DNA of 64,000 nucleotides from Stegostoma tigrinum (GCF_030684315.1 NC_081365.1:60938481-61002480), one strand, 5' to 3'; counted from the first letter of the stretch, positions 1-64,000 are shown. The notes: generated from the sequence alone by a model not told the origin. Numbers and translations are program-made.

Positions 1-33
1 GCTGATGTTTCGGGCCTAGACCCTTCATCAGAG
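1..33 (-). mobile_element. Family A Penelope end with hammerhead core (cut by the window edge)
   Basis: Minus strand reads CTGATGA-AGGGTCTAGGCCC-GAAAC-ATC (31 to 4). Confidence 0.7.
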
Positions 34-165
34 ACTTCTGGTGTTATGCAGCTTGAGTTCTGTTGCACTGTTGAACTTAAAGGCATTGCCTTTGCAATCA
101 AAGGTAATGGAAAAGCAAAGAAAATTTAAAAAAAAATTTATACAATGAAATAATTCACATTTTAC

Positions 166-222
166 CTGCTCATCCAAAACGGGGAGCGACAAGTCTAAAA
201 ATGATTCTTCTACTAATGTAAC
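166..222 (-). CDS. USP16: USP16 exon ([19 protein letters not shown])
   Basis: cag acceptor, gtaaaa donor, 57 nt. Confidence 0.93.
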
Positions 223-3200
223 CTGAAAAATAAATACAAAGAGTTTTTTCTTGGTAATTTATTGCTGAACCTATAGTCTAAGCAATAACATTTGCCCTTC
301 CTGCAGCTGCCAAAGTAGTTTCTTGTCAGGGAGAGCTCTCTGATATCTGACCTTAACGTTTTACCACATAGAATGTTATAGTTACGAATATATGAATATG
401 AATGAGGAACAACAATAGGCCCCTAGAACAGGAGTGCAGTGGAGGCCAGGACGTTAAATGTCTTCAAGGCAGAGATCAACAAATTCTTGATCTCACAAGG
501 AATCAAGGGCTACGGGGAGAGCGCAGGGAAGTGGAGTTGAAATGCCCATCAGCCATGATTAAATGGCAGAGTGGACTCGATGGTTTCAAATGGCCTTACT
601 TCCACTCCTATGTTTTATGATCTTATGGTTACAGATCACCAACCTACAAAATCATATGCAAAATGAAATATTTTAAACTTGTGCACATCCAGAAAAATCT
701 TAAATCCAGTCCAGATAATAGGCTGTGTTCTAAGTTGTTAGTGATAATGGGAACTAAAAACCAATCAAAATAATCAACTCTAAACTGACAACAAAAGTAG
801 TGCATTAGTTTCAAATTTAAGTTCCAGTTTTCAAAAGAACATATTTCAGTGTCGAGCACTTAGTAAATTTAGACACAATGTAATCTTTTAAAATGATATG
901 CGCCACGCAAAAAAACTTACAAAATACAGATAACATTACTAAATGCACAAACATATTAGTAGGTATTAACTGAACACCGAGTAAGAGGCACATCCAAGTG
1001 TACACGATACAAACTATGTGAACTTTCAAAGCTTTCAGGCAAGCCTTTCTTACGCATAAAATAATTTAACAAATGGACACAAATTGCCTCTCAAAATTTA
1101 ATCATCAGTGTACAACTGAGTACTAGACAGAGACAGTGAACAATGACAGTTTATATTCAACTTAGGGATTTGAGGAATAAGACAGGAGCTTGAATGTTTT
1201 GTATTGGGTCACTGTACTATATAAATTCACAGAATCCAAGGTTCGATTGCGAACCTCTTTTTAATTGGTTGGCCTCAGTCAGCTCAAGTGGAAGAGCTAC
1301 AATTTGTCTAAGAGCCAATGAGTTTGGAAAAATGAAAAGCACTCAGGTTCTTTAGTGGATGTCCATTGGTGCTGATATTAGGATTGGACTTAGATACGAT
1401 GCTCCTCTATCCAGTTAACATCCTAATGAAAATTGAAGTATTCAGTATTAGAGGATACCTGGCACTATGGAATTGTAAGTAACATGAAGTCAGCATCACA
1501 AGACCGAAGGAGAGGGAAAAACTCTTTGAGCATACTGAGGCAAAACAATTTACTGGCACATTAATTTAAACAAAATTACACATCATATACAATAGTGAAC
1601 TATTTTACATCCCTTATATATAACATGATCGTTACAAAATCATTTTCCGCCATCAACATTTTGTACCCATTCTTTTCGATTGACTCGTGTCAATCTATCT
1701 CACCATTTTACACTCCTCACACATGATTGTACTTGTCATTGTGCCACCAAACACCCGGTCAACGAAGTTCAGCATGGAGCCCTCTTTTTCATATGCTAGT
1801 ACAAAGGAGAAAATCCAAGTGTAAATCATTTTGCTTTATCTAGCATGGAATTACTTCTTACCTTGTGACTAAAATGAAAAACAGGCCCTTTCAATACTGC
1901 AGTAGTATGCCAGCATCCACAAGAGGCTGCTAGAGAGCTGAGTAAAAATTGTCATCAGCAATGCCTGTCATCAGCTCATTTGGCTAGACTGTAGGTTTGT
2001 GATGCAGAGTGATGCCAACAGCATGGACTCAAAAGGCACTGGCTTAGGCTATGAAGGCCCCCTGCTCAAGGCATGGAAACCCTCAGGTTAACGTCACTAC
2101 CAGTCGTCTCCTTTTAATGAGAGCAGCCAATAGTAGTCTAGGACTGTGGTGACTTGACAGTTAACATGAATATCACCCAATAATTCTGAAAAATCTTTAC
2201 ATGTAATTCAGAGCTTAAGCCAAGGAATTCACAATTGCTGATACTGAATATTTATTATTAATACCAAAATTTAAGACCTTTATAACGGTGCGAGCAGAAG
2301 ACTGATGATATAATGGTAACATGACTGGACTTGTAATTCAGAGACCTGGTTAACATTCCAGGGTAGAGTTCAAATACCAACATGGCAGCTAGTGGAACTT
2401 AGAATTAGATATAAAATTCTATTGATTAATAAATACAGAATTCAAAATTAGTTTCAGCGATGGCAAATGTTGTAAAAGCACCTTTGGGGAAGGGCATCTA
2501 TTTGTCATTCTTTCTTGGTCTAACCCATGGTTAACATTTAATTGCCCAATGTGATAGCCGAGCAAGACAAAAAGATGTTCTAAAACACTACAGAAAAGTC
2601 AAACCAGATACAGAGGTTCACAACGTCAAGGACAAACAAGAATGGGCAACAAATGTTGGCCTTGCCAGTGATGTCTACATTCCACAAAAGAGTAAAGAAA
2701 AATCTCTAAGCAAGTATACCTGTTTAACACTCAAATAGACCAAATGCCCTGAATGTACCCACATATTTGTCACTAAAAACAGTAAAACAATAAATATCTG
2801 TGCTAATGGAGAACCTTTTTCAAAGCTCAATTAAGCTACCTACAAATCATGCTGCTGTACTGATAACTCAAACTGAAACACAACTCATTACCAGAATGAG
2901 TGTAAAACGGGTTCACAGAAATAGATTAATGCAAGGAACGTCCCTCTTTCACTAGAAGTGGGTCAGTCTTTCAGAAGGCCAAACTGTCTGCTGTACAGAA
3001 TATCCTCCCTTGCCTAATAATGTCAACAGAAAATTTACAAGTTTCCTAAAGCAATGTTGGTCTGAATTCTTTATATGTGCAGTTAGTACAGTATTCAGTG
3101 TACTAAAACTGTAGCTCCAGTGACGTGCTATCCAAACCAACACCAATTGTAATGATAAAATCAGGAGCAATGGTTTTCTGTGCTGCACATTCTGTTAGTT

Positions 3201-6200
3201 TTGATGTGTTCACAAATTTGAATAGCTCAAAATATTACCAGTCTTATTGGCCCATGGCTCTAAGGTACAACTGTAAACTGCGGTTAGGATTCCCACGTAT
3301 TCCTTCAAAAGGTTATCGGCCAATTTCCTTCAAAATTCTCACTTTATCTTGTGTTTCTGTCTCAGAACAGACCCAGAGGCTTAAATGGTCCTTTTAACAG
3401 GATGGTCAGCTTTATCCAATTGGATCTCTTGAGCTTCAGTTTTACCTTTGTTTACTCTTAATTCAGGAACACCCCTTAACAACTGGAACTCTGGTGTTCC
3501 ATCTCTCCCTCAGCACACCTCAGAAAATCTAGACTATCTACAGTAGCTCTGCCACCCATTCAAGATTCCCTTTGATTTATATTCCTCAACAGTACCCCAG
3601 GCAGTACATTTACCTACTGAGTTACAGGTACAGTCCCCCTATTCGCTATATTCAAAGTAAGTGGCGGTACTATGAAATTACCTTTCATGGTTTTCTTGGA
3701 TTCTTCATTTTCCATCATCTCTGAAGTGTAATTCAAGGCTTTTAAAATACCAGCACCTATGCGCTAAGAATCAAATACAATGAAACGTGCTTTTAGAAAA
3801 TATATTTTTTTGATTACAAGACTTGATGTACAGAGTTTCAATTGCCCATCAGTAAATAATGGAGAAATATAGAGCTGATTCTTCACTATGTAATCCACTA
3901 CATTTTCAACATACAATCCCCACTGCTTACAGTGAGCACACTAGTGTCAGTGGTATAGAGGCCAATAAAAATCTCGTAAAAAGTTTGGAGAGACTTTTCA
4001 TTCTCTTTGCTTCAGTCTAAATATCCTATTCTTGTTCTGCACATTGCATAAATAGCCTTAACACATTTTCAAACAAAATTTGATAGAGGATAAAACAGTG
4101 AGCGATAAAATGTCTTTGATCAAAATTATGAACTTTGAATGGTAAGCAGATCAAAAAAGGGAATCTTATCAGTATATTGTTGGGAGAGGCATTTTTGTTC
4201 CAGAGATGTGTCAAACAAGCTTTAATTCTGAAATGCCACTGATTGTGGTAGTCTTGCGCAGTTCTACTTCTCACGTGACTGAAGTTTTACTGAAACTTTT
4301 AGAAATCACCAAGCACAGGGTGTTAGCTTGCTAACACTTGAATAGCTAACTACATTAACACTTTACTGCTTCTCCTGCAAAACTCTTGACAAAATATGTA
4401 CAGAAGAGTGTACTATACAGTTGTGATAGCAACAAGATCTATTGGCTATCAAACGTTTAACAGTTTCATGCTTCTCTGCCAGAATCATTATCAAACCTAA
4501 CAAACAAATTAATGAGATAACAAGGTGTAGAGCTGGATGAACACAGTAGGCCAAGCAGCATCAGAGGAGCAGGAAAGCTGACATTTCAGTACTAGACCCT
4601 TCTTCAGAAATGGAGGAGTGGAAGGGGATTCTGAAATTAATAGGGAGAGTGGGGGAGGCGGACAGAAGATGGACAAAGGAGAAGTTAGGTGGAGAAGAGA
4701 CAGACAGGTCAAAGAGGCGGGGGTAGAACCAGTAGAGGTGAGTGTAGGTGGGGAGTTAGGGGCGTAGGCCAGTTCAGAGAGGACAGACAGGACAAGGGGG
4801 AGGGAGGAGGCTGATAGGTAGGAAATGGGGGTGGGGCTTGAGGTGGGGGGAGGGGATAGCTGGGAGGAAGGACAGGTCAGGGAGCCTGTCCTTCCTCCCA
4901 CCTATCCCCTCCTCCCACCTCAAGCCCCACACCCCTCTCCTATCTACCAGCCTCATCCTGCCCCCTTGACCTGTCTCTCCTCCCCTCACTCCCAACCTAC
5001 ACTCACCTTTACTGGCTCCACTGCCACCTCTTCGATTTGTCTGTCTCCTCTCCACCTACCTTCTCCTTTATTCATCTTCCATCCGCCTCCCCACTTCCCT
5101 ATTTATTTCAGAATCCTCTTCCCCTCCCCCATTTCTGAAGAAGGGTCTCGACCCAAAACGTCAGCTTTCCTGCTCCTCTGATGCTGCTTGACCCGCTGTG
5201 TTCATCTAGTTCTACACCTTGATATCTCAGATTCTTCAGCATCTGCAGTTCCTACTATCTCTGAAACGATTAAATTAGGACATTATTCTTTTAAATCATT
5301 GCTGCTTTATTTTAATGATGATTTTAAATTTGGACAAGAGATCAAATGAAACTCATTATGATAACAGGTGAATACAACAACCAAACACCCTGGGAATTAA
5401 TGATAAGTAAACATCATTTTTTGATATGTACACCTTTGTAATTGAGGTTACAGTGCTGGTAAAACAGATGGTGCCAATTTTCCAATATAGGTGCAAAAAC
5501 AAAGTTGCTGGAAAAGCTCAGCAGGTCTGGTTGCATCTGTGAAGGAAAAAACAGAATTAACGTTTCGGGTCCGGTGAGCCTTCCTCAGAACTCAGTTTTA
5601 AACTCTGCATCCGCAGTTATTTCGGTTTTTATTCTGATATAGGTGGCTGTTCAGAATAAATAGGCATGGAGCAAGTGAGTAGACTGTACTTACAACATCA
5701 TACGCAAATTAAAATAACACAATATTTACATTGATCAGATAACTAAACTGTGCAGATAATTTATTTTAACTCATTTCCAAATGGATAATGCACCACAGAT
5801 AAATATGAACTATTTAGATGCACTTAGTACTGTTCACTGTATACTCTTGAAAATGTGCATGGAGTATTATATACCATTTTTGTATATTTACTTGCATTGC
5901 ACGAAGTTCAGGAGAGGTTCACTGGATTGATTCCAGAGAAGAAGGGTTTGTCTTATGGTGAAAGATTGAGCAGATTAGACCTATACTGTCCGGAATTTAG
6001 AAGAGAGGTATACAAGAGGGTGCAGGGGATTGACAAAGTGAACATACAGCAGACGTTTCCACATGTGGGGCAATCTATAACGAGAACTCATAGTTTTAGG
6101 ATAAAGGGTAGCTGAGGAGGAATTACTTCTCTCACTGGGTCATAAAACTGTGGAATTCACTAACCTAGTGTGAGATAGATGCTTGCACATTGAGTAAATT

Positions 6201-9200
6201 TAAGGACGAGATAGACAGATTTTTAAATTATAAGGGTTTGAAGGATTATGAGGAATGGGCAAAAAGTGGAGTTGAGGCCAAAATGAGATCAACTATGAAC
6301 GTATTAAATGGCAGAGCAGGCTCAAGGGGATGAACTGCCAATCCTGCTCCTCGTTCTTATGTAACATTCCTATATAAAAGGCAAAAATTACCTCAAACTT
6401 CTCATTTAAAATAAACTCTCCCTCCCTTAAAATCCACTATCTCATACATGGATTCACCCATCATGGTACCCAGCTATATTTTAAATTAAGCTAATATACT
6501 TATTCTGAGGAAGGGTCACTGAACCCGAAACGTTAACTGTTTTCTCCTCCACAGATGCTGCCGGACCTGCTGAGCTTTTCCAGCAATATTTGTTTCTATT
6601 ACAGAGTTTAGGTGATTATTCAAAACATTTATCGCCGTTTGAATATTGAAAGATGTCCTGATATTTGTTTCCTTACTTTTCACTACTTATGATCCCACTT
6701 TCCTGGTTTACTTTAGTATAACAAATAAATCAAACTCAGATTAATACAATGAGGTCATCCCTTAACTGTTTACTTGCTTGTATCATCAAATTTTATCTTT
6801 TCCCAGTCCATTCTAGACATCTCCTTCATGCTTAGAATCAGTTTGACTGCTCAAAGCACAAATTTTAACTTCAATGCTATTTTTTTGTACCTGTCCAATT
6901 CCTGCGCTTTTTCAAGGTGTAAAAATCAAAACTAGTCACTAAATTTAAGGTGGAGTAGCACTGTCCTGGCTATATGTTCCAGCATCCTACTAGGTTTTAT
7001 AAATTGCTCTGCCATATTGGCCAGGCAATGAAAGTTGAGTGTCACACCTAGTTTTAGTCACTATTAAGGTATGGCCCATGTATTTTGGGCTGTGTAGAAT
7101 TTCTCACACTTATCGTGTTAAGATGCTACTTCGTAAAAGCTGGAACAAATCCTCGCAATTTATTGTTAAATTTAATTCTAATATACATCCCTCAGCTCAC
7201 TGTCACTCATCTGGTTTACATTTCAGTTTAATAGTTACAAACAGTTGCTGAAAACCACTGCAGTACACTTACTTTGATCTCCTCAGTTCTCATTCCATCT
7301 AATAAGTAACGAAGCAACTCCTGGCTATCCTGCTGCTGGAATCCTTTAAATCGTACAGCTCTAAGGAACACATTTGAAGAAAAACATGTAAAAGGTCCGC
7401 ATTTACAAAACAGATATTCTTCACACGATTCATCTCTTTTTATGTCTTTCAATGAAAATCACTGTTAGTGCAGTACGTAAGCATGACTACACTATTTTGG
7501 GTTAAATTTTAAACCAAGGTTCTACCTGCCTTCTCAGGCATACTTAGAAGTTTCTAAAGCAATTGTGAAAGAACAAAAGTTCTCCTAGAGTCCTGGCCCA
7601 CACTTCACTTTCTTTACTGTCATTTGTAGGTTATTTATTTCATTCCTTTCTACTTAATTGCTTGTTGGCAGCCACATTTCCTACAACGGTGACTACATTA
7701 AAACAAAACTTAAGGAGTTGAAATGTGCTTTAAAATGCTGAACTTATGAGAAGCAGCAAATTAAGGCAAGTATCTCTATTCATTTTACTGCTGGTTATAA
7801 CTTAATTGTAGAAGAAATTTAATAAAATTGTAGTGGAATGCTATTGTTACTGAAATCGTTATCAGGTCACGATAGACAATTTGCTAAAATACAAATCAGC
7901 AAAATTTGTTTGCAAGTGAGTGTTTCAGGAAAAAAAAATGACCTAGTCAATGTAAATTTTATTATAAAAAAAAATTATTCACAAGGCAAACAGTGATAAT
8001 TTCAAACTGTTGTGTTTGTTCTGAAAAAACACTGCAAGATGTTTTGGTCTAATTATTATTGATATCATACTTACATATTGATGATTGGTGATACTCACTT
8101 TTTACAGACCTGAGCGAACAGCTCCTTTGGAGTGACAACATTTTTTTTGGTATCTTGGAATTCAAGAAGAAATTGGCACATTGCTGATGACAATGGTCCT
8201 GGTTGATCAAGGTGAATCTCTAGCTGTCCCTGATAATTTAAAGTAAAATTCATAAAGCTCTAAATTCAAAAGAAGTCATATTGGAGTAGAAGGGTTAGCT
8301 CTGCTTCAATTTCCATGGAGGCTGCCAGATTGGCTGAGCATATCCAACACTTGCTGTTTTACACATCAGAAGCATCTGCAGTACTTTCATTAAAATATTT
8401 TTGAGTCTAGGAACAAACTTTAAAAACATACTATGAAGTATGAATCCCTTTGAGCTGTATTTACTTATAAGGTACATTAGGCCATTTCCGACACTGTTGA
8501 GCTTTAGAAAATTTCTAATTTAAATATGAAATCTGCAGCGAAGCAGGTGTTTAAAGATAAGAGAAGCTAATAGGCCAAAACATTTGCTTTTAACGAAAAT
8601 GCATCAAATGTGAGATTTTGAGATTAAAAGAATTAAAACCACATAAGCAAATATGGTGATAATTAGATAATATCAACGTCTGATCCTTTAGTGGGATGTA
8701 CAACAGGATCTGGCTGGGCTCAGTTGATCTTTTCTGATTAAAGCCACTAGATTTTCATGATCCTTGTACGAATATGGTGAATTAGGAGCTGAAAAGCTAC
8801 TACATAAAGTAATCCCGAAGTCAAGCCCGAATTGCCAACAAACATAATTATACAATTTTTAGATTTGCATTCAACTAAACATTGTGACTTTGCAACATTC
8901 TAACATTTTAAAAGAGAAACTGAGCTGCAACTGAATGATTACTTACAGCTAACGAACATTCTTACTAAGATCAGAAGTTGCAATTCATCTTGTGCAAGGA
9001 GTTAAATATATTTTAATGTTTGCAGATACTTTGCCAATTCACAAGGAAATCTTAACAAACAATTTTTTTTTGCTAGCTTTCCTGACAGTGCGCAACATGT
9101 TCGTTAGGCATCATTGACAGCAGAGAATAAATTATTCAAAGCTTTAAAAGATACAAGGATAGAAAACTAATAAATATTCAAAAGAATGGGTGATATTTTG

Positions 9201-24100: not shown

Positions 24101-24119
24101 GCATGGCGCATGCGCAACC

Positions 24120-31187: not shown

Positions 31188-38087
<6,900 letters not shown>

Positions 38088-40825: not shown

Positions 40826-40899
40826 AAAAATCGAAATTCCCTGGAGTACAGCGTCACCTAGATTTCTCCCAGACTTTGCACCGTTCCAGCCACTTCCCA

Positions 40900-50300: not shown

Positions 50301-53300
50301 GTGAATCACAAGGGCCTGTGTCAAGGCAGAAATGCTAATTATTTGTGAATGATAGCTCAACTCCCTTTTATCTTCAGGCTAAAATGACAGTTAAAATAAA
50401 CTACTAGAGATCTTACATTCTCAACATCCTTTTGGGTCTTTGAGAACTCATAGACTCTACTGGTAACACACAGGTTACTACAATTGTCTCCAAGTTGAAA
50501 TAACTTGGCACTCTTTTCCCAGTAAAATAGTCTGTGTTCCTTTGCTAACAATCAAAGCACCAGGCTCACTGTCAGGCAAATATCCGACCAGGTCGTGGGG
50601 GGGCCCCCTTTTATTTGACTCTAACTCTAAAACTATTACTATTTTTGACATTTCTTTATATGAATGAAGCTAGTTATATGACCCTCTCTTCCCCCACTCC
50701 TCTTGTCCTCCTCCACCCACATCTTCCTAAATAAGCAATCTTGGAAAAGCAAAAACCTCAATCCAACCTCATTGTGATCACTGGACTAACAAGCATAATT
50801 AAGAGTATTGATTAAAATTGAGAAGAAACCGAGCTAAGTGTGAGCATAGTGCAGTACCAAAATTGCATGTTTCAGAGGATTGATGATACTCTGTGATTGA
50901 AGGTAGCCTGTGATTTTCATCTTGTCTGTTTATAAATTTGTTGCCATAATAAGTGTTTCTGTATATTCCTGCCATAGGAGTTTTCATACACTTAATTCTG
51001 TACACCTATTACAAAACTGTACAAACCACTTGTCAATAATAATATATTTTCGTGTAGAGAAATATTAGTTACTATTTTAGCATACTGAATTTTGAGATTC
51101 TTACTGTGTACGTTATTCTGATGTCAAAAGTGAATCCAAACAACTATAAAAGAGAAAAGATGTTTGACGTTATTTGCAAAGGTGCTATCAAACTAATACA
51201 TATTTAATACATTTTTAAAAAACTTTGGTCAATATTGGATGTGGTCTGCAACGTGGTCACCCAGTCCACATTGGTGTCTGTCTTTCAGATTTTGAGCAGA
51301 GAATAGAATATGCTATAGTAAAAGAATCACTGCGGAGATAAGCTGCTGGGGACATGGACAGTGAGAGGAACTAAATGAGCTGATACTGCATCTCCTGAGA
51401 TTGTATAGAAAAGGGAAGTGATGTTGGGTTTGAGGGATAGTCAGGCCTTTATGGAGGGAATGTTTCTCCCCTTGTGTTGAAAGGAGATATGCGGGGAATG
51501 TGGGTTTGGTGACGGCAGTACTTGGAAGTTGGTGGAACTGGAGAAAAATCAATCATTGATTATGAAGATGAAAAAGTGGAAGTTGAGGACAAGCACTATC
51601 AGTGTTCTCAAATATGTGAAATAGAATGAACAACTGAGAGCCCTGTCAGCCAGAGTGTAGGGGGAGATCCCTTAGTTGAGGGGGGAAAAGGAATGCATAA
51701 CCAAAGACATGGTATGCAATGTTACATCGTCAGAATAGCTGTAAGTCGGAGAATGAAATGGAGTCTTTGCAGAAGTGGTATAAGAAAGTATGGTGATGGT
51801 AGCTATTGAAGTCAATGATCTTATTAATGAATGTGTGCTCATTGCCTATTGCAAGAAATTGAGACAGAAATAGAAAAGAAGTTCATTGTTGGAGCAGGGC
51901 AATGTAAAGGTGAAGGGAAGGTGAAATTGGAACCGACGTTAATGAAATTTCAAACTCGGGGTGAGAACAGGAAATGCCATAAATGTTCCACATATTCCAC
52001 AAGTGGGTAGGCATAGCAAAGCCCCATATGGGTAAAAATGATATCATCATTTATTTGGAAGAAATTATTGGAATTAAAGGAGAACTTGCTTCCTCTGAAT
52101 CACAAAGCTTTGCATTGGCTTCTAGTGTAGCACCTACCGCCCCCCCCGCCCCCCCCCCCCCCCCCCCCCCCCATCCCCCCATCCCCAACCTTACACTTAC
52201 TTAAAACCTGTTATATTTCTAATGTTACCTTGTTCTGATTAAGGGTCTTTGACTTGAAACATTAATTCTGTTTCTCACTCCACTAATGCTGCTTGATGTG
52301 CTGAGCATTTTCTGTTTATATTTCTGCTTTTCAATGTCCACAGTATTTTGCTTTTGCCTCATAAAAGATGTATTGTCCTTGGAAAAGTATACAGTGCAAA
52401 TCCACTAAAATGATAACAGGATGTAAAAAGATTAAATAATGAGATGTTGATCAAATGGAGGTGCTTAATGATTCAGTACATACAGAGAAGCTGGGTGCAA
52501 TCTTAAAATCAGCACTTTGCCATTTACAAGAGAAATATGGAAACATTTTATTGTGCAGAGTGGAAAATGAGTATGGACATTGATATAACCAGTATGAAGG
52601 TTGACAAATTTTTAAAGAGTATCAAATAACATTGAACATAAACGGTTGGGAGTTGATGTACAGATCACCTGTGAGCTAATTGATTGGCACAATTGGCTGA
52701 GAGCTGAACAGCCTATGTCTGACCCGTGTAGCTAAATGTGCGGTCGTATCTTCTCATTCAAAAAGTTTCATCTGTTAATACGTTACTTATTGCCTGAGCT
52801 AAGCATCTGGAATGTGCCTTGAAGCCATGTAAAAGGTTGCAGGAAGCATTCTCCTACCAAGTCAAACTGCCACAAACAGGGATCAAATTTGCTGTGTTTT
52901 GATTGGTATGACTGAATTACAGTAGCAGACCTTTTTTTTAAACAAACTGTGATGAACTGTTGGACTATTTTACCAGGTAACATTGAGTTTTGGATGTGAA
53001 CTTTCAGCCTAACTGATTGTCAGACTTGTTTTTTTTATGGCTCTGATGCTCCTAAATTAGAAAATTGGGGGTTCAGTGTATTCTTCAATTAAGCACATTT
53101 TCTAGACACTGAGGGAATGCTGCACTTGTTCACATGAGGAGTTAAACTGAGAATTGTCTGCTCATTCACATGGATGTGAAAGATCTTGTAGCATTGTTAG
53201 TGGAAGAGTAAGTGACTGCCTTGAATAATACTTATCCTTCAACCTACCTCCCTTAAAAGTCATGGATTATTTTGATACTTATTTCGTTGCTCTTTTTGGG

Positions 53301-56300
53301 GACCTACTTTTTGCCATGAGTTCCAACATTACAAAGGTAACCTCAGTTTAAAAAGTGAACTTCACACATCAAAGCAATGTCTTGAGGCTGTTTTTTTAAA
53401 AGAAAATGCAAATCTTTCATCTTGCAAATTTGATTTCACTGGTACCCTATAAACTGGCACTCTTGATTGGCACTCAGCCCAGTAAATCGATCAAACCAAA
53501 CTTCCATCTTTCCAGCTGCCTCAGGAAAGAAACCAACAAAGATCCCTCCCACCTTGATTATACTCTGTTCCACTTTCTTTTGTCGGGTAGAAGATAGAAA
53601 AGTTTGAATATATGTACAAACAGATTCAAGACAGCTTCTTCCCATATGTTATCAGACATTTGAACGGATGCCTCAAATATTAATGTTGATTTTTCTCTCT
53701 CTGCACCTTTCTCTGGCTGTAACACCGTATTCTGCACTCTGATGTGCTACCCTGAATCACTTTGTTTGTTATGATCTGCCTGCATAGCATGCAGAACAAC
53801 ACTTTTCAGTGTATCTCGATATATGTGACAACAATAAATTTAACTTAAATTCATCTGATAAATAGGGAAAAGTTATATCTTTCATATTGTGAAAAGCTTA
53901 CTTTGTAATTCTGTCCAGTAATAGTTTTTTAAAATTTATTTACATCACTGTAAATATTCTTGTTCAATCAACATTCAAAGTATGAACAGTTGATTCAATT
54001 TCAAGTCAGTTCCTCCACAAATAGTGCAACCTGCTGCAATGTCCAAGCAGTCATTTGAGGGTGCAAGTGAGAAGACTTTTACCTAGAAGCAAAGTTACAT
54101 TATAATTTAAGTTTTTTTTATGTTGAAAATAAAATATAACAGATCGGTTATACTCCCTGCATTTTGTTTTTATTACTTAATGTGAGATTATGTGCCTTTT
54201 GATTATCCGGAATATTTGACTACACTCCTGGTCCCATAGGTGTTGATTAATAAAACTTTTGCTTTTCATTAAATTTCATTTTCTGTGATACATTTTGAAC
54301 CTTGAATGGCACATTGAATATTACAGTATTGCTATATTTAGTTGCCTGGTTTAGCTTGTTTTAGTCATCAATGTCGACTAACTATGTAATTGTAAGTTAA
54401 GCTCTCTGTTTCAAGCCACACTAAGATTACTGGTTAGCCAGATTTTTAGAAATGCACCCTATAATATGTAGAAATCAGTTAAATGCAAAGTGGGAAATTG
54501 TATTTGACGAAGTACTGATTGCATGAATGTTGTTGTTTGGAATTATGAAATTATCTTGCTTTTTTCAGTGCGATGTTTCATTTTTCACTGCTCAAATTGC
54601 TCACTAAATTTTCACTCACTTTCTTCTAAGGCTGTCCAAGAGTTTGGGACAATGTGCAAAGAGAAACACCTTGAGAATATTAAAGGAGTTCTTCCTTATT
54701 GGTCAAGAATTTACTGCAAAATTTCTTTGGTAAGCTTCAGTGTGCTAATGTTTAAACCGATTGGATGCAAGCAAATAAATCAAATCTACAGCGACAGAAT
54801 TGAGACATTGGTCTAGCATTTACAAGGAAGCAAAGAAGGTATGGCAATGTGAAGGAAAGCAGCAAAGCCAATGATGCAGACTTTCTTCTGTATTTAAATG
54901 GCAACTTCTCATCAAAATTTGAATTCACTTCAATTTTAGGCCTGGCAATGGCTCAGTCAGCTGTTGAGTGGGAAAACCAGCAGCAAGTGACTGTCGCCAT
55001 TGACCCTTTGAGACAATTCAGTTCTGGACATTTGCAACGGAGGGGAGTGAGAATTTGGCCTGGGGAGGAGAAAGACCATGGATAGAGAAAGGTCACATGA
55101 GATTTGGGCTTGGAAAGGGGTGTTTGGCAGAGAGAGAGAGAGACCAAAGATTTTTCAGTTAGGGTGTTTAGGCCTTCACGAGCTTGAAGCTTTCACTTTT
55201 TCTTTGCTTCACAGGGAAACCAGGTAGCAACTGTTAAATTGACTTGCATTGAACTGTTGGAATCTGACAGAAATATACTAATGAAGTGACTTATCTCTCC
55301 GTTTTGAATTTTTCATTCAATACAAGGCCTGCTGTTGTAAACCTATTGAAGGACTCATTGAGTCTGCAAATCAATAACATTATTTTTTAATAGAAGCAAG
55401 ACAAATCATTTTTTAGTGTTATCATAGTTCATACCCCCCTTCAAAAACGATTGTTATAATCCAATTCAAAAGCAGTAACTACATTGTTCCTTTTTTCAAA
55501 TATGTTACTCATGTTACATTTCTTAATATTAATTAAATTTAATTGTAGTCCTCTTCATTGAGGTTATCAGACTGCCTCAATTTGAGCATGATGTTTACTC
55601 ACTGAATTTCTGCCATGGTTTTCATGACTGAACAAGAATCTGATTCTAGTACTGTGGCATATCAGGATTTCACAACATAACTACGTATATATAACAACAA
55701 TTTCTGTAACTTTGGAAATATAGCTTTTTGTTAAAGACCGTTAACCAAATGCTGTCTAGGTACAAAAGCAACACTATGAAATTTATTGTTTTCATTATGG
55801 ATCAAACTATTTTAAATTTTCAGAGCTTAAATTTTCCACAGTTCAGTTGAGTCTGTTGGATATAGATATTTGTAGCTAAAATAGATCTGTTTTAATGTGA
55901 TTTCGACTCTCATTGGATTTAATTTATTGGAAAGAAGGCTCTTAATTTTCTTCATTTGAGTTTATTTTGGTGTGAACTTTTAAACCATTTCCATGCATTT
56001 TTTTTTGGTCCTCATGTTTTCAGTCTTCCATTCCTTCTGGTCCAAATGTCTTTTCTTCAGTTGACATTCTGTTCCCCTTTCCCTGTAAATAACTGCCATC
56101 CTCTCATTGTATAGATAGTTGATATGTTTTTCAGCTTCCACCAGTATTACTATCAAAGACTGTATCCTTCTTTAGTTCAATAATACTCACATCTACGCAA
56201 TTGTATGCTCACACCACCAACAGTGAGGTTGAAAACTACCACCCCTCCAAGATTGACACTTAGGTTTTCAATAAACTTTAAAATTACTTTGGCTGATACA

Positions 56301-59300
56301 GTATTTTTGCAAATTAATACATTTAACAATTATCATTTTCTTTATACAAATAAGGATGTCCCCTTTACAAATAATTGGCTTTTGTTCCTTTATTAACAAT
56401 TTCAAACTATGCCTCATTCATTTTTCATGTGCATGAGCAAGCGACCTGCTGCCAGAACCTTGCTATTGAGCCAATCGTAAGGAGATGCATGACTATGCTT
56501 CCAATAATTCACTCAGGCTGTGTTTATTACTGTGTTTTTGTTCAAGCATCTTTCACACATTCTCTTTCTAAATTGGGAATTTCCTTTCATAATATACAGC
56601 TTGTGAGAACATGACAAGTAAAAAGCCATGACCATACCTTGCCACTCCTCTTAATAACTCTCTGTAAAAAATAACTCTTTCACTTCCTCTTTCATTCTTC
56701 TAGGTTGAACCCTCTGCTTGTGCCTCCTTGTAACATTTTACACATTCACCTAGAAATGATTTTTGTTTTAATTTTTATTACCATTATATGGTCAGGTTAC
56801 TTTAAGAAAGATTAAAATGTAGAGTAGGACATTTCAGTCAGAATGCTGCTGAGATTGGTACAAGTTAAGGGTACTTTCCTATTGTCTCAAAACTAATGGA
56901 TTATATGTATGTTTTGGAACAGTTCAGACCCTCTTGCTAAAATTGGCTTCCCTTCATTATATATGGCTGAGGGATTTTGCAAAGCTGGCATTGTAATTGC
57001 CTTGATCTCCCACAGAAAGAGGTTTGAATTTAGATTTTACACTAGCCTCAGAGTTATGGAGGACCATAGGTGATGCAAATATGGTGCAATCAGAAATCTG
57101 GTTGTCTGATCAACTGGAGAAAGACTGAGGAAACTTACAACAGTGTGGGGAAAACAAGTTTGCGCTTATTAAGGAATCCTAATTGAGTTTAGCCCATAAC
57201 TAAGAAAACAGATTTGCGGCTTCTTATTTTACATGGCAATTGGTGTGACATGAAATAGACATTTCTCACTGGTTAAAGAGATAACAAGGTGTAGAGCTGG
57301 ATGAGCACAGCAGGCCAATCAGCATCAGAGGAGCAGGAAGGCTGGCATTTCGGGCCTAGACCCTCCTTCAGGCTTCCTGCTCCTCTGATGCTGTTTGGCC
57401 TGCTGTGTTCATCCAGCTCTACACCTTGTTATTTCAGATTCTCCAGCATCTGCAGTTCCTACAATCTCTTTCTCACTGGTTGTTCATTCACCCACTTAAT
57501 GTAAAATGAACCAGTTTGTGGATTGGCCTTAACTCACTCAAATTCTTTTCAGTTTGTCTTCCGAAAAGATTAAGAGAAAGTGTGTGCCAATGAAAGGGGA
57601 AATGGAGTTTTTAATGTACACAAGTAATCTATTACGAAGATCCCAACCAGGGATTAAAATAGTTTCTTTTCAAGGGCTACTTTTTTTGATTTGCAGGGGC
57701 TACATTTTCATTCTTACCAGTTGATTTGTTAGATTATGTGGTCACGTTACCTAATGTATTAATGTTCATATTTGGACTTGCATAGAACAGAAGTAGTATA
57801 ATTCTGCAATCGACTTTCCATTAAACTTAAATCAACTGCATTAGTTTCTTAGTACGGTATTTAAATTGGTACAGGGCAACAGGCATAAGTTAACAAATTT
57901 TCTCTCGAAATAGCTGATTTTCTGACTCTCAAAAAGCCGTCATGCTAAACACATCTTCAGGAAACTCGTCAGGTCACAGCTTCTATGGCAGCTGCTCAAA
58001 GCTGTATCATTTTAAGCAGGCAGTTATAACCCCATTGACTCCATTGGATTTCAACTCAAATTTAGCAACTGGCACACTTTTTTGTAACAGGATCCAATTT
58101 TTTTGACCAACTATTGTAGCTACTGAAACAAGGTTAATTTATATTAAAGATTCCACAGAGGTTCATTGCTTCAATAGTTACAAATTTTATTGGATCCTAG
58201 TTAGCTGAGCATTCCTTTCTTGATAGATTTAAAATTGTTGTTTCTGCATTTCAGCCTCCTTTTTACAGCTTGTACCTCTTACAGTCTCCTACCCCACTCT
58301 GCAGCCCCCTACTCCCTTCAAGCCTGTTGCCGCCTCCTTCCACTCCCTTGAAACCTTGTTGCCTCCTCCTTCCACTTCTTTCTGTCTTGCAGCCTCCTTT
58401 TACCCTCTACACTCTTTGCCACCTTTTCTCTCCAATTCTCTTGCAGCCTCCTTTTCCTCTTCCACAATGAACCTAGTAGACAGAACACCTGCACTCCACA
58501 AAAGATTCTTTCTCACAGCAGCTGAATGCAACTTTTTGTCCTCGCTTTCGGAAAAGGTGTCATGTAGCTCCCCATCCTGACGTGAGCAAAAAGCACCCTC
58601 AATTCAGTAGTGAACCTATTAGTAACTAGCGTGGGGGAGAACCAGCCCTTATTGGGTTGACTGGTTGGTCACCACTTCCTTCCATTGTATTTGCAGAGTT
58701 ACATTCCTTAGGTTGTCATGAGTGAAATTTTGCGAATATTTTGGGACCTCTTGTGAGTGGATTCACCTTCTGCTTCTGTGTATTTTGAGCATTGATCCCA
58801 ACATCATGTTAATATTTAACAAGAATTTGAGCAGGAACAAAAACAAAAGTCGCTGGAAAAGCTCACCAGGTCTGTCAGCATCTGTGAAGAAAAAAATCAG
58901 AATTAACATTTCAGGTCCCTTCCTCAGAACTTAACCAGACCTGAAACGTTAGCTCCGATTTTTTTTCTTCACAGTTGCTGCCAGAACTGCTGACCATTTC
59001 CAACCACTTCCGTTTTTGCTCCTGATTTACAGCATCTGCAGTTCTTTTGGTTTTTATTTAAGATATTGGGCAGTTTCAGTGCTCCCCTGATCTGTGGAAT
59101 GTGATGTTCAGTAATGTTAAATTATAGACCTTATTAAATAGAACATTGAGCTTAACAGTTTCCCAAAATGCTTCTCATCTGAGACAATGTTGATTGGAGT
59201 AGAATGTTTTTTGTAATTATAGTAGTCCCAAAACCTACACAAATTGAAGCTAGAAAATCCACATTCATTTTCAAGGAATTCTTTACCTCAGTGATTTGAA

Positions 59301-60961
59301 GTTATCTTGGTTCCCAGTTAGATATTTCATTGATCATGTAAAACTGTTCGCTGTCTTTCTCTTTCCCTTTCCTCCAATCCTCTCTTGCAAGGTTCTTCTT
59401 GCAGCACTTCTTCCCTAACTTCTCACGACTATCCCTTGCACCCCCCTCTTTTTGCATTAAAATGCAAAATGCCCTTCCCTGATCCTGAGCCCCAATTTCC
59501 ATGTCATTTTTTTTGTGATTGCAGCCTTTCACTCTTGGTCTCACATTTGGAAATCTTCACTGTATCTTTTCTGTGTCTATAATATCTTCCATATGATAAG
59601 ATGTCAATAGTTGTATTCCAACATTACTTATACTCAATGTGCTAGGCACGATACCTTGGATTCATTTGTGGGCACTTACAATTTAAAAGATTTATGCTAC
59701 TACTTCTTATTATCTTTCTGTCATCACTATAAGAATTATAACTGTCGCAGTTAAGGCCATTTTGAAATTGACTGTGTTCTGTAAAGGAAATTTTGCTTAA
59801 AATGCTGATATTTTTGACATGCATTGTGCATTCCAAAACCAAGATTTGTTAAATTCTAGTAGACAGTTTCCTTGGAATACAATTTTTGCTGCTTTGCTGA
59901 TTGATTCAAGTGAATAATGTGTCTGCTGTCTTCGTGGGTCTGGTTTAAAAAGTGAAAAGTGCAAAATGAGGAGAGTGAGAAGTCAGAGGCAGATAATACT
60001 GCATGGGCATCTTGTATAATTTTATCATATTTGGTTACTTTTATTTTTTAACACTTAAATTTGACCCATTACTTTTCTGCCTTCCCATTTTCTTCTGAAA
60101 GTATAGACTTGTTATGCTGACAGTATTCCATTGGTGTCTGCCAGTTTTTTAACACTTAAATTCAATAGCAAAGAATTTCCACTTAAACATTAGATGTGTT
60201 TAACTTTGGGTATCGTGGTTCAGTCTAATCCTGACATTGACATTGCACTTTTGCAACAGTCTTACCAAGTTAGTTATCAAACGTGACAATCTTGAATAAT
60301 TTCTGCCGTAGCTAAAACTGGGCTGCTGAAGCCAATTAAAATGTCAATTGAGCACCCTTCATAAACGACAAGTTATATGTGAGACGCTTCTCTTTTGTAT
60401 GGATCAGTTGCCTACTGAATAAACTTCCTGACCTATTGAGAGGGGTGCAGGGGAATGAATGAATGAAATTGTCCAATTAATAGCACCGCTTCTATTAATA
60501 TTTTCATATGTTATGTTTTCGGTTGGTTCATGAAGTGTAGTTTAAATGTTTTATAATGTCCAAGTGTAGTAAATGCATCCTAAAGGTTAGCTAAAGGCTA
60601 AGATACAGAAGAAGCCGTTAATCTTTTGTTTACTGCCAACCTTCATTCGTTGTTCGTGAGTAACGTGGGGTAATCCTTTTAATGACAGATTATTTTAATT
60701 GCTAATTCCCTCCTCCCAATCCTACTCCAGGATCATGATCGTCGGGTTCGAGAAGCAGTACAACAGGCATTTGAAATACTTGTCCTTCAAGTGAAGCGGA
60801 ACTTAGCACCTTATTTGAAGATTATTATGGGACACTGGCTTGTTGCTCAGTGTGATACCTACAATCCAGCAGCCTCAGCAGCAAAAGTAGCATTTCAAGT
60901 TGCATTTCCACTGAACAAACAGCCAGAAGCTGTGGCTTTTTGTAAAGAAGAAATTATGAAT
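41128..60961 (+). CDS. LTN1: E3 ubiquitin ligase listerin, first 192 codons in 4 exons (gene continues beyond the window end)
   Basis: Exons 41128-41169, 46737-46940, 54631-54729 and 60731-60961, all phase 0. Protein [39 protein letters not shown]...[23 protein letters not shown]...[25 protein letters not shown]... is the conserved listerin N-terminal domain. Confidence 0.96.
41690..41785 (+). mobile_element. Family A fragment with an intact minimal hammerhead core, inserted in a CR1 3' end
   Basis: CTGATGA-AGGGTCTAGGCCC-GAAACGTC at 41700-41727. Confidence 0.8.
41931..42152. mobile_element. Short fold-back family B element
   Basis: aaattgctgcagaaactcagcaggtctggcagcat / atgttgccagacttgttgagtttctccagcaattt. 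Confidence 0.78.
42676..42881. mobile_element. Short fold-back family A element
   Basis: ataacaaggtgtagagctggatgaaca ... tgttcatccagctctacaccttgttat inverted arms plus a one-sided tail. Confidence 0.85.
43570..44800. mobile_element. Degenerate composite Penelope (family B ends flanking GIY-YIG remnants, inverted junction near 43900)
   Basis: ORF 43922..44194 [34 protein letters not shown]; 43850-43897 resembles the reverse complement of 44146-44198; family B termini at 43570-43670 (-) and 44660-44800 (+). Confidence 0.7.
45036..45822 (-). mobile_element. CR1 LINE 3' fragment (RT C-terminus, 3' UTR, (ATGTTCT)n tail)
   Basis: ORF 45171..45923 [11 protein letters not shown]...[18 protein letters not shown]...[16 protein letters not shown]; agaacatagaacatagaacat tail. 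Confidence 0.92.
45830..46210 (+). mobile_element. LINE RT C-terminal fragment of a second family (CR1/L2 group); related pieces at ~27145-27930 (+) and ~28455-30270 (-)
   Basis: [26 protein letters not shown]; ...[21 protein letters not shown]...LDTIQDKAA. Confidence 0.75.
46737..46940 (+). CDS. LTN1: LTN1 exon 2 (68 aa)
   Basis: poly-T aaacag| acceptor, AAA|gtatgt donor, 204 nt. Confidence 0.95.
47811..47940. mobile_element. Short fold-back family A element with an intact hammerhead core in the loop
   Basis: caaggtgtagagctggatga / tcatccagctctacaccttg arms; CTGAAGA-AGGGTCTAGGCCC-GAAACGTC at 47852-47879. Confidence 0.85.
48556..48942. mobile_element. Fold-back Penelope-derived element, family D, with 12-bp target-site duplication
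   Basis: GCCATCTTTTGT at 48544-48555 and 48943-48954; arms ~48596-48770 and ~48788-48940 inverted; minus-strand decayed hammerhead CTGACAA-TGTCACCTAGAAGGGAGAT-GAAACGTT. Confidence 0.8.
49046..49390 (+). mobile_element. tRNA-derived SINE with LINE-derived tail; a more diverged copy lies at ~2303-2703
   Basis: A box ctagtggta, B box ggtttgaatcc, tail gccagcgacgccctcatcccaagaatgaataaa followed by an A-rich end. Confidence 0.75.
53500..53845 (+). mobile_element. Rex1/Babar-like LINE 3' fragment
   Basis: [19 protein letters not shown]-type C-terminal motif; 3' end acttttcagtgtatctcgatatatgtgacaacaataaa. Confidence 0.6.
54631..54729 (+). CDS. LTN1: LTN1 exon 3 ([33 protein letters not shown])
   Basis: ctaag| acceptor, TTG|gtaagc donor, 99 nt. 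Confidence 0.95.
57275..57468. mobile_element. Short fold-back family A element with 13-bp target-site duplication
   Basis: TTTCTCACTGGTT at 57262-57274 and 57469-57481; inverted arms plus 3' tail agattctccagcatctgcagttcct. Confidence 0.88.
58250..58470. repeat. Degenerate pyrimidine-rich tandem repeat (ttgcagcctccttttacc-like units)
   Basis: Recurrent gcagcctcct / gcctccttcc units. Confidence 0.55.
58836..59059. mobile_element. Short fold-back family B element
   Basis: cagcatctgtgaagaaaaaaatc / gattttttttcttcacagttgctg arms; tail tttacagcatctgcagttcttttgg. Confidence 0.8.
60731..60961 (+). CDS. LTN1: LTN1 exon 4 (DHDRRVREA...FCKEEIMN)
   Basis: ctccag| acceptor, AAT|gtaagt donor, 231 nt. 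Confidence 0.95.
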
Positions 60962-61868
60962 GTAAGTTTTCTTTTGAAAAGATCTTTCTCACTGGTACTT
61001 TGAATAATTATGAAAAGTTGTATTACTTTTCAAGTTTGTTTAAATTTGCCCTATAATTTAGCCAGAATTATGAGCTTGAAGTTTTATCATTCCCTTTCTG
61101 AGTAACTTACAAACTTTCTACCACAGGCCAGTGATTTTCTAGTTTTGTTGTATCCAGTTATCAACTATCACTCTTTACCAGCTGTTTATACTCATTGCTC
61201 ATTTTTACTTGATTCTAATGGATACTGTATGAACAAAGCCATTAAAGTAGCAAATTGACCTAACTATTGAACATGGGCAGAGCATTTGCCCTTTTAATCG
61301 ATCCCAAAATTAGGTTGACAATTCCACAATGATAAACAGGGCGGTGTGCCGTGGAGGGAGTGGGGCAACAGCACTAGATTGTGCAGTGATCTAGCGTATT
61401 GTCTTTAATTTCTGGTACGTATGTTTGAATTCAACACATACTGGTGGGATGAAAACCTTCTTTCTCTTTTGACAGGCAAGGTCTGATACAAAAAAGGTTT
61501 GTGTACTGACAACTTAAGGTCCTGTGGGTGTGATTTACAAATTAGTCTTAAATTATGAATCTTAGGGAGACTGGAGGGGGAAAATTAAAAGCAAAAATAA
61601 CTTCGTTGTAGCAGACTATTCTAATGTGATTCAGTTAATAGCACATTCTAATGACAGCAAGAATTTTTATGACCATCGAAGAGTACTATAGTTGACATGA
61701 AAGTGAAAAATCCTGACATATTACAAAAGTTAGAAAATACTGCATTCCCTGAACTGATACCCTTTATAAAAATCTCAAATATTTTTAGATTTTCTGATTA
61801 AAATTGACATTGTTTTGTATCCAATATATGTAATTTTGCTTTACGTTAAACTGTTTGCTCTTTTTCTA

Positions 61869-63037
61869 GTGATAATGGGAACTGCAGATGCTGGAGAATC
61901 CAAGATAACAAAGTGTGGAGCTGGATGAACACAGCAGGCCAAGCAGCATCTCAGGAGCACAAAAGCTGACATTTTGGGCCGAGACTCTTCGTCAGAGAGG
62001 GGCATGGGGAGAGGGAACTGGAATAAATAGGGAGAGAGGGGGAGGCGGACCGAAGATGGAGAGAAAACAAGATAGGTAGAGAGGACGGTATAGGTGGGGA
62101 AGTAGGGAGGGGATAGGTCGGTCCAGAGAAGATTGACAGGTCAAGGAGGCGGGATGAGGTGGTAGGTAGGAAATGGAGGTGCGGCTTGAGGTGGGAGGAA
62201 GGAATGGGTGATGGGAAGAACAGGTTAGGGAAGCAGAGACAGGCTGGGCTGGTTCTGGGATGCAGTGGGGGGAGGGGAAGAGCTGGGCTGGTTTTGTGAT
62301 GCAGTGGGGGGAGGGGAAGAACTGGGCTGGTTTTGGGATGCAGTGGGGGAAGGGGAGATTTTGAAGCTTGTGAAGTCCACGTTGATACCATTGGGCTGCA
62401 GGGTTCCCAAGCGGAATATGAGTTGCTGTTCCTACAACCTTCGGGTGGCATCATTGTGGCATTGCAGGAAGCCCATGATGGACATGTCGTCTGAGGAATG
62501 GGAGGGGGAGTTGAAATGGTTCGCGACTGGGAGGTGCAGTTGTTTGTTGCGAACCGAGCGGAGGTGTTCTGCAAAGTGGTCCCTAAGCCTCCGCTTGGTT
62601 TCCCCAATGTAGAGGAAGCCACACCGGGTGCAATGGATACAATATACCACATTGGCAGATGTGCAGGTGAACATCTGTTTGATATGGAAGGTCACCCTGG
62701 GGCCTGGGATAGGTGTGAGGGAGGAGGTGTGGGGGCAAGTGTAGCACTTGCTGCGGTTGCAGGGGAAGGTGCTGGGTGTGGTGGGGTTGGAGGGGAGTGT
62801 GGAGCAGACAAGGGAGTCGCGGAGAGAGTGGTCTCTCTGGAAGGCAGACAAGGGTGGGGATGGAAAAATGGCTTGGGTGGTAGGGTGGATTGCCGATGGT
62901 GGAAGTATTGGGGGATGATACGTTGTATCCGGAGGTTGGTGGGGTGGTATGTGAGGATGAGGGGGATCCTCTGGTGGCGGTTGTGGCGGGGGCAGGGTGT
63001 GAGGGATATGTTGCGGGAAATGCGGGTGACGTGGTCA
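61869..63037 (-). mobile_element. Penelope-like retroelement, 5'-truncated: GIY-YIG endonuclease region plus 3' end with degenerate hammerhead (left arm of a fold-back)
   Basis: ORF 62432..62851 (-) NVVYCIHCTRCGFLYIGETKRRLRDHFAEH...HF; upstream CxxxxCxxC linker; hammerhead-like CTGACGA-AGAGTCTCGGCCC-AAAATGTC at 61995-61968. Confidence 0.9.
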
Positions 63038-63040
63038 GTG

Positions 63041-64000
63041 CATCCGCCGCATCTGCTCCTAGGATGAGGCATTCCACTCCCGCACATCCCAGATGTCCAC
63101 GTTCTTCCAGGAGCGCAACTTTACCCCTTCAGTGGTCGAGAATGCCCTTGACCGCGTCTCCCGCATTTCCCGCAACACATCCCTCACACCCTGCCCCCCG
63201 CCACAACCGCCACCAGAGGATCCCCCTTGTCCTCACATACCACCCCACCAACCTCCAGATACAACATATCATCCTCCGACACTTCTGCCATCTACAATCC
63301 GACCCCATCACCCAAGCCATTTTTCCATCCCCACCCTTGTCTGCCTTCCGGAGAGACCACTGTCTCCGCGACTCCCTTGTCCGCTCCACACTCCCCTCCA
63401 ACCCCACCACACCCGGCACCTTCCCCTGCAACCGCAGCAAGTGCTACACTTGCCCCCACACCACCTCCCTCACACCTATCCCAGGCCCCAGGGTGACCTT
63501 CCATATCAAACAGATGTTCACCTGCACATCTGCCAATGTGGTATATTGTATCTATTGCACCCAGTGTGGTTTCCTCTACATTGGGGAAACCAAGCGGAGG
63601 CTTGGGGACCGCTTTGCAGAACACCTCCGCTCAGTTCGCAACAAAGAACTGCACCTCCCAGTCGCGAACCATTTCAACTCCCCCTCCCATTCCTCAGACG
63701 ACATGTCCATCATGGGCCTCCTGCAGTGCCACAATGATGCCACCCGAAGGTTGTAGGAACAGCAACTCATATTCGTCTTGGGTACCCTGCAGCCCAATGG
63801 TATCAAAGTGGCCTTCACAAGCTTGAAAATCTCCCCTAACTCCTACTACATCCCAAAACCAGCCCAGTTCTTGCCCTCCCCCACTGCATCCCAAAACCAG
63901 CCCAGCCTGTCTCTGCTTCCCTAACCGGTTCTTCCCATCACCCATCCCTTCCTCGCACCTCCATTTCCTACCTACCACCTCATCCCACCTCCTTGACCTG
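63041..64000 (+). mobile_element. Penelope-like retroelement, RT C-terminal/thumb remnant plus GIY-YIG region (right arm; runs off the window)
   Basis: IRRICS*DEAFHSRTSQMSTFFQERNF...; NVVYCIYCTQCGFLYIGETKRRLGDRFAEH; reverse complement of the left arm from 63149 onward. Confidence 0.9.

Follow-up and report, generated by a model that had tools for sequence, protein, structure and literature searches.

Endonuclease-bearing Penelope-like elements (PLEs) of the Neptune clade encode a reverse transcriptase (RT), a Cys-rich linker and a GIY-YIG endonuclease (EN) in this order, and carry a minimal hammerhead ribozyme in their pseudo-long terminal repeats (pLTRs) (PMC8557442, PMC3846280). Their insertions are described as 5'-truncated, with an inverted partial copy, a 30-40 bp tail on one side and a short target-site duplication (TSD) of variable length (PMC8557442, PMC3846280), so that the inverted copy and the one-sided tail are already published PLE features. 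Here we analyzed a window of 64,000 nt from Stegostoma tigrinum (NC_081365.1:60938481-61002480), from which all counts below are taken, and found a population of mostly fold-back insertions of four families (A to D), in which family A, and probably B and C, share this coding order, terminal hammerhead and type of insertion. Unlike the Neptune PLEs described so far, most insertions in the window consist of terminal sequence only and have a fixed inner boundary at the hammerhead.

The minimal hammerheads of metazoan PLEs (PMC4209133) share with those in the window an extra base between positions 9 and 10.1, a G10.1-C11.1 pair, a palindromic helix III with zero loop, a short helix I and a mostly solo occurrence. 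They differ from the present ones in the stems, as stem II is 4-5 bp here and helix I of family A only 2 bp. Pairs of minimal hammerheads 100-700 bp apart on opposite strands, together with thousands of solo motifs, are reported in the same work, so that the structure noted in a preliminary description of this DNA is not new; the Results and Discussion of PMC4209133 do not map arm boundaries and tails. In the Poseidon PLE of Anolis (PMC11167929), as proposed here, two RT start sites bound the tail, both strands are primed and the template is uncleaved RNA, and the AC-rich tail of family D resembles it as well. Poseidon belongs to a clade different from that of families A to C, and the main-text parts of that paper describe neither run-off inserts nor a one-tail rule. 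Animal non-LTR retrozymes (bioRxiv 10.64898/2026.07.22.740005) are likewise pLTR-derived and non-coding, contain a type I hammerhead and occur in a chondrichthyan; their units are arranged head to tail with ribozymes on the same strand, whereas the insertions here are head to head or solo. The origin of inverted and tailed PLE insertions is described as unresolved (PMC8557442; PMC11167929).

We conclude that the fold-backs in the window are real, PLE-derived and ordinary in kind. They look like by-products, and the new class of mobile ribozymes suggested in the preliminary description is not supported. The insertions are probably products of autonomous RT+GIY-YIG PLEs, formed by two-site priming and run-off, instead of members of a separately replicating class. 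The boundary and one-tail patterns go beyond that description and offer a modest but testable lead on the open mechanism.

Inventory of the PLE insertions

Arms were located by self-BLAST, mapping to references and profile searches. A PLE terminal arm was present at all 18 sites where the preliminary description had placed one and at three further sites (8267, 13123 and 51200-52355), giving 21 insertions. The two-armed hairpin design that had been ascribed to more than 15 insertions was recovered at 14 of the 18 sites (family A: 4514, 18456, 40668, 42676, 47811, 57275 and 61869; family B: 25660, 40212, 41931, 43570 and 58836; family C: 29146; family D: 48556), where two inverted, 5'-truncated element ends are joined 5' to 5' with their 3' ends outward. 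It did not extend to 5494, a two-ended insertion whose arms do not overlap, or to the solo arms at 1, 6503 and 41690. The earlier density of one 130-750 bp hairpin per 3-4 kb fits all 21 PLE insertions (one per 3.0 kb); the 11 fold-backs of at most 750 bp amount to about one per 5.8 kb. Families A and B together comprise 14 short and 4 long copies. The insertions and an adjoining remnant are as follows.

1-34, minus strand: family A solo arm clipped by the window edge; hammerhead core from 31, with the 5' end 3 nt ahead of it and without a partner
4513-5264: family A long hairpin; left arm 4513-4876 (minus, untailed), right arm 4880-5264 (plus, tailed); arms extend to -250/-255, with a TATA-like box at -35 and an initiator-like A at -4 before the core
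5494-5636: family B two-ended insertion; untailed arm 5494-5593 (minus) and tail-only piece 5607-5636 (plus), no arm overlap, 9-bp TSD
6503-6592, plus strand: untailed solo arm of family B, whose minimal hammerhead core at 6505 is perfect
8267-8388, plus strand: degenerate family B solo tailed arm, newly found (E 8e-12)
13123-13185, plus strand: solo arm of a related family, newly found, beginning near the GAAA box (E 5e-8)
18456-18651: family A (third subfamily) hairpin; 14-bp arm overlap in hammerhead stem II, left arm tailed, 12-bp TSD, seven derived bases common to both arms
25660-25822: family B hairpin; left arm short and tailed, right arm begins at the core
29146-30082: family C insertion; inverted untailed arm at about 29147-29310 (internal deletion) and a 5'-truncated tailed copy with an endonuclease C-terminal remnant at about 29317-29473 and a decayed hammerhead at 29965; 14-bp TSD
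40212-40418: family B hairpin with a tailed left arm; the core is reached from both sides
40666-40826: family A hairpin; left arm tailed and ending at core position 0, right arm from +49
41691-41784, plus strand: family A solo untailed arm of the 61869 subfamily; perfect core at 41700, 12-bp low-complexity TSD
41933-42152: family B hairpin; left arm tailed, stopping about 6 nt before the core
42675-42881: family A hairpin; left arm tailed and ending at -2, right arm from about +15 to +24
43405-43566, minus strand: remnant of a PLE reverse transcriptase, matching profile positions 385-439 and lying immediately next to the untailed end of arm 43570L
43567-44800: family B long inverted pair; GIY-YIG remnant 43952-44185 (plus), right arm tailed
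47811-47938: family A hairpin; both arms untailed, right arm from -1 with a perfect core at 47852
48556-48942: family D hairpin; AC-rich tail of 40 nt on the left arm, TATA-like box at -55, hammerhead core at 48670 (minus) decayed, no coding remnant, 12-bp TSD
51200-52355: old B-like insertion, newly found; RT/EN traces on the minus strand, tailed arm on the plus strand with its core at 52235 and at least 50 nt of sequence upstream of the core
57277-57468: family A hairpin; left arm untailed to core position 0, right arm tailed from +26, 13-bp TSD
58836-59054: family B hairpin; left arm untailed and ending at -4, right arm tailed
61866-64000: long inverted pair of family A; the left arm (minus, tailed) extends to about 63036, the right arm (plus) from 63042 off the window; RT thumb, Cys-rich linker and GIY-YIG remnants in both arms carry stops or frameshifts

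One-sided tails, target-site duplications and junctions

Each two-ended insertion consists of two 5'-truncated element ends placed head to head, with one TSD where detectable. Exactly one arm is tailed in 13 of the 14 two-ended insertions that have both ends in the window, in agreement with the extra tail reported earlier; none has two tails, and the untailed hairpin at 47811 is the only exception. Independent choice of tail by the two arms would give such a count with a binomial p of 0.0009. Perfect TSDs of 9, 12, 12, 12, 13 and 14 bp were identified for 6 of 18 insertions tested (sites 1, 61869 and 51200 lying outside the test); no more than 1.3% of 300 random position pairs scored as high. 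Their variable length supports the RNA-mediated insertion that had been proposed. The flanks have an A+T content of 66%, compared with a background of 61%.

[quoted passage not shown] Being short, palindromic and dense, they could pass for MITEs that a DNA transposase mobilizes. Neither equal terminal inverted repeats nor a fixed TSD was found; the ends are unequal through one-sided tails, the TSDs range from 9 to 14 bp, the centers vary, and the arms run directly into RT/GIY-YIG sequence, which makes this explanation scarcely credible.

The junctions differ in all six family A hairpins mapped, the arms either overlapping by 3-14 bp or being separated by a filler of 3-4 bp. This bears out the variation among copies seen earlier and supports the suggestion that every hairpin forms anew at insertion. 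The 14-bp overlap at 18456 is comparable to one of 15 bp reported in PMC3846280. The tailed piece at 5494 consists of nothing but the tail and stops at the point where its partner starts. Simple self-copying is excluded at 57275 and 58836, as neither arm there contains its partner, and since each arm of 57275 holds sequence that the other lacks, two priming events are needed there.

These arm geometries also bear on the idea that a single cDNA folds back and is copied as a DNA hairpin. Derived bases common to both arms at 18456 (seven), 41931 (five) and 58836 (three) could be produced in this way, and the junction of 18456 lies on the palindromic stem II. However, the shared bases in these three copies point to one source RNA, which fits them equally well, and at 57275, 58836 and 5494 the far 5' end occurs on the untailed arm and is missing from the tailed one, so that neither can template the other. 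Fold-back of one cDNA is thus contradicted for the latter three copies and could still hold for 40668, 42676 and 41931; as a general explanation we consider it very improbable.

The tails of families A and B start at a pyrimidine-rich tract followed by AG (5225-5250, 25665-25700 and 61880-61905), a splice-acceptor-like sequence at the putative inner RT start site.

A fixed 5' boundary at the hammerhead core

The longest arm ends between -9 and 0 relative to core base C3 in 13 of the 18 family A and B insertions, the remaining ends being at +6, -50 or more, -255, about -750 and about -1150. If truncation were exponential (means 30-400 nt), such a cluster would have P<=0.0006. Four of the 13 conforming insertions are solo arms, and arm-to-arm microhomology can therefore not be the whole cause. 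Two other sources of the boundary were considered and rejected. Ribozyme cleavage is predicted at about +29, away from the boundary, and only the second arms at 57275 and 42676 and the solo arm at 13123 start near that site. A splice acceptor fits family B, not family A, and the short copies share no upstream exon sequence.

Promoter-like motifs accompany the boundary. An initiator-like motif with its A at -4 or -5 was found in four of six long arms of families A and B (background 1.3% per position), and a TATA-like box lies at -35/-34 in all three long arms of family A, 30 nt upstream of the boundary. From these motifs we infer that the boundary is a transcript start site.

A fixed 5' end with a retained TSD would also result if an insertion of the form inverted pLTR plus pLTR-open reading frame (ORF)-pLTR lost its ORF after integration by direct-repeat recombination, similar to the formation of solo LTRs. 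Solo pLTRs are ascribed to recombination or deletion in PMC3846280, and an internally deleted ORF lies beside a pLTR at 43570. However, no full-length copy survives among the 18 family A and B insertions, while 4 long and truncated ones do, the homology available is only 95-135 nt, and the tail-only partner at 5494 is left unexplained; we regard a post-insertion origin as quite unlikely.

Coding remnants and PLE affiliation

The family A coding remnant at 63163-63750 is 86% identical to a protein of the whale shark and 84% identical to one of the zebra shark, and aligns with the C-terminal part of RT+GIY-YIG proteins of about 900 aa. Its translation contains a Cys-rich linker, C-x4-C-x2-C, between RT and EN; such a linker is a Neptune feature, and the motif is also found in Nematis (PMC3846280, PMC8557442). 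With a profile built from 86 RT+GIY-YIG proteins, the family B remnants of EN (43952-44125) and RT (43405-43566) score 13.6 and 12.4 bits, against a best score of 2.4 bits in 60 control windows. Together with the adjoining RT remnant, 43570 reads as a textbook inverted copy plus pLTR plus (deleted) ORF, not as a mini-element. For family C, the direct coding score is only 2.6 bits, the best of 200 shuffles reaching 2.0. Two of its four short homologues, P0142 and P0144 from whale shark, score 33.9 and 16.3 bits at profile positions 823-896 (the other two 6.0 and 2.6), and the link of family C to the endonuclease C-terminus is thus indirect, holding by transitivity through homologues. Consequently, the earlier claim that families A, B and C are joined to GIY-YIG remnants is strong for A, weak but above controls for B, and transitive only for C. 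Family D has no coding remnant at its locus; only its structure, tail, TSD and hammerhead fit a PLE.

The 64-kb window contains no intact PLE ORF, the coding remnants of B and C were not recognized by Pfam, and no full-length shark PLE protein was present among 97 matches of 822-2345 aa. The PLE origin given in the preliminary description is supported by the continuity with RT/GIY-YIG sequence, the RT and EN profile scores, the inverted copy, the tail and the TSD. Families A to C are 3' ends of EN-containing RT+GIY-YIG PLEs, A being Neptune-like and B and C probably so, a placement that follows the linker motif and not a labelled RT tree.

Two further observations concern these remnants. At 62243-62356, where the ORF ends in the left arm of the long inverted pair 61869, a 39-bp unit is repeated 2.9 times; the right arm has fewer units. 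Insertions are nested at 42150-43566, where the 42676 hairpin, a long interspersed element (LINE) fragment and the 41931 hairpin appear to have struck an old family B element whose RT and possible EN traces lie on the minus strand. Its candidate EN remnant (42432-42665) scores 2.0 bits, inside the control range, with a tblastn E of 2e-4.

The hammerhead motif

A strict descriptor detected three perfect cores with stem II (6505, 41700 and 47852) and none in 20 shuffles. With one mismatch, seven hammerheads were found, compared with 1.25 +/- 1.2 in shuffles (maximum 4). Two of the three perfect cores lie in solo arms. The motif consists of CUGANGA and GAAA-N-N'-UH with a stem II, has an extra base after A9, a G10.1-C11.1 pair, a palindromic loopless helix III and a short helix I, and agrees with the minimal type I hammerhead recognized earlier. 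The form CTGANGA-hairpin-GAAAC-GTH, placed in arms or loops by that description, is not seen throughout; family C has G-C at 15.2/16.2 in the place of GAAAC-GTH and a decayed core, and in family D one arm carries G8A and the other a stem II deletion. Across 17 arms of the four families, 86.8% of stem II and 56.7% of helix I are paired. The covariation score is marginal, being matched by 25 of 500 shuffles with family C off by one alignment column.

A search of the window with curated Rfam covariance models, proposed earlier for the whole genome, returned no hammerhead at the gathering score and none among 86 hits at E<=10. Dozens of sub-threshold Rfam miRNA matches were set aside as generic hairpin matches below gathering scores. 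A second check, on a point that the preliminary description had itself named as able to refute its reading, compared the core with its 3' flank. Changes within families number 7/112 in the core versus 74/1051 in the flank for A, and 11/103 versus 142/883 for B. The pooled non-CpG sites give 14/204 versus 216/1934 (p=0.058), and all sites p=0.25. The core is therefore not significantly better kept than the flank, as expected for decaying dead copies.

In predicted folds of eight hairpins, the arm duplex dominates, the active fold appears in none, and the cleavage region is sequestered by the duplex in most. The predicted dimer uses the helix III palindrome for 6503 and inactive pairings for family A. 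The two hammerheads of one hairpin lie on opposite strands, and a single transcript contains one sense ribozyme only; double cleavage of one transcript, as in retrozymes, is hence impossible. No tandem hammerhead array was found in the 21 tandem-repeat rows of the window.

Relationship between short and long copies

The short copies of family A fall in three subfamilies, two of which also include long copies in the window. Specifically, 41690 shares six diagnostic bases with the ORF-bearing arm 61869L, and 40668, 42676, 47811 and 57275 match the 4514 type. The two arms of one copy differ by 6-13% in family A and 16-38% in family B, within or near the between-copy range; homogenization of the arms or selection for pairing was rejected because they have diverged about as much as separate copies. 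The differing junctions and the placement of short copies within long-copy subfamilies favor repeated production by autonomous elements. In this small sample we observed neither shared structure combined with private mutations, the mark of a replicating family, nor head-to-tail units with same-strand ribozymes as in retrozymes.

The preliminary description had regarded the hairpins as a non-autonomous ribozyme mini-element class. Short copies would be transcribed from an internal promoter and re-mobilized in trans, like short interspersed elements (SINEs) or retrozymes; a short master element would begin at the fixed 5' end, and hairpins would still form at insertion. The excess of short over long copies (14 to 4 in A and B) and the fixed 5' boundary agree with this, pLTRs suffice for trans-mobilization in a rotifer (PMC3846280), and non-autonomous PLE derivatives and retrozyme monomers exist (PMC8557442; bioRxiv 10.64898/2026.07.22.740005). 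The absence of shared junctions and of tandem hammerhead arrays, the three subfamilies with their long members, and the opposite strands of paired ribozymes all speak against such a class, as do the sequestered cleavage region, the lack of significant core conservation within families and the independent decay of the arms. In addition, the short copies end at the tail and do not contain the downstream RNA that the lizard protein requires (PMC11167929). We therefore consider a non-autonomous class unlikely.

Proposed mechanism of insertion

Two-site priming with run-off, the reading we prefer, may proceed as follows. The element endonuclease would nick both target strands 9-14 bp apart, and each 3'-OH would prime reverse transcription on one element RNA at two sites about 35 nt apart. 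The outer start site would give rise to the arm with a 35-40 nt tail and the inner site to the untailed arm, the outer cDNA either displacing the inner one (overlapping arms) or stopping behind it (5494). The far cDNA ends would then be joined by microhomology or a few filler bases, and every junction would consequently differ. Priming in the terminal repeat at the 5' end of the transcript would lead to run-off after 95-135 nt and to short arms that have a constant inner limit immediately ahead of the hammerhead core, comparable to strong-stop products, whereas priming on the downstream repeat would yield long, randomly truncated, ORF-bearing arms. The hammerhead would be a passenger of the terminal repeat, uncleaved in the copied template and decaying after insertion. 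Short copies have neither the upstream TATA-like box nor the sequence 3' of the tail, so that the majority of them are probably dead on arrival.

In LINE-1 twin priming, both target strands prime on one RNA and the inverted piece is joined by microhomology, and 5494 has this geometry. The present insertions differ from it in that the second priming site seems to lie at a set distance of about 35 nt from the first, and in that the arms mostly overlap to form hairpins. The lizard PLE protein, a predicted dimer, nicks and extends both strands (PMC11167929). Its two start sites are internal to the RNA and delimit the tail; they lie 111-118 nt into the ORF, and so close to the 5' repeat. The protein needs RNA 3' of the start sites up to +172 and uses uncleaved RNA (PMC11167929).

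Several points weigh against this reconstruction. The mechanism statistics come from 18 family A and B insertions in one 64-kb window, and a clear TSD was not seen in 12 of the 18 insertions tested. The 5' boundaries were partly read by eye, those of 8267 and 41690 being uncertain (12 of 17 conform without 8267), and 18456 (+6) and 52234 (-50 or more) are off the boundary. Motifs are the sole basis for the transcript start: 61869L and 52234 have no initiator at the boundary, family B shows no TATA-like match in 43570L or 44700R and, in 52234, only at other positions, and the initiator-like motif of family B is also a stem I strand and also reads as a splice acceptor. Furthermore, the lizard data come from the Poseidon clade while family A is Neptune-like, and since pLTRs alone can mobilize DNA in trans in a rotifer (PMC3846280), the short copies may not all be dead.

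A more specific version, which we put forward only tentatively, is that a dimeric RT/EN primes both strands on one RNA, using two fixed sites within the 5' terminal repeat, and that most events run off at a transcription start coinciding with hammerhead helix I. By analogy, and with the same reserve, the short copies might correspond, among PLEs, to retroviral strong-stop DNA that the genome has captured. If so, longer insertions would depend on a switch to the 3' repeat or on a tandem transcript, and one mechanism would account for pseudo-LTRs, inverted copies and one-sided tails as well as for the many solo minimal hammerheads of animal genomes. The fixed 5' boundary and the one-tail rule are predictions countable in genomes, and an in vitro PLE system exists.

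Host genes and other features of the window

Pfam matches to RWD and Prp3_C at 33066-33473 lie within exons at 31150-33476, with further exons at 37820-38090; we take this gene to be of the RWDD2 type. Exon-like segments at 41131-41170, 46730-46940, 54630-54730 and 60735-60960, which have no Pfam match, presumably belong to LTN1 (listerin). Several PLE hairpins lie in the introns of this presumed LTN1-like gene and just upstream of its first exon.

A 116-bp near-perfect palindrome at 17062-17177 is unrelated to families A to D and has no hammerhead core; it is possibly a MITE or another fold-back insertion. A 4.4-kb C-rich minisatellite with units of 19-41 bp and about 27 bp occupies 18813-23264, just upstream of a GC-rich, bidirectional-promoter-like segment at about 24000-24200. 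Finally, fragments at 45030-45820, 45850-46200, 28460-28920 and 49040-49380, unrelated to the PLE hairpins, resemble what we assume to be CR1-type LINE 3' ends and SINEs.

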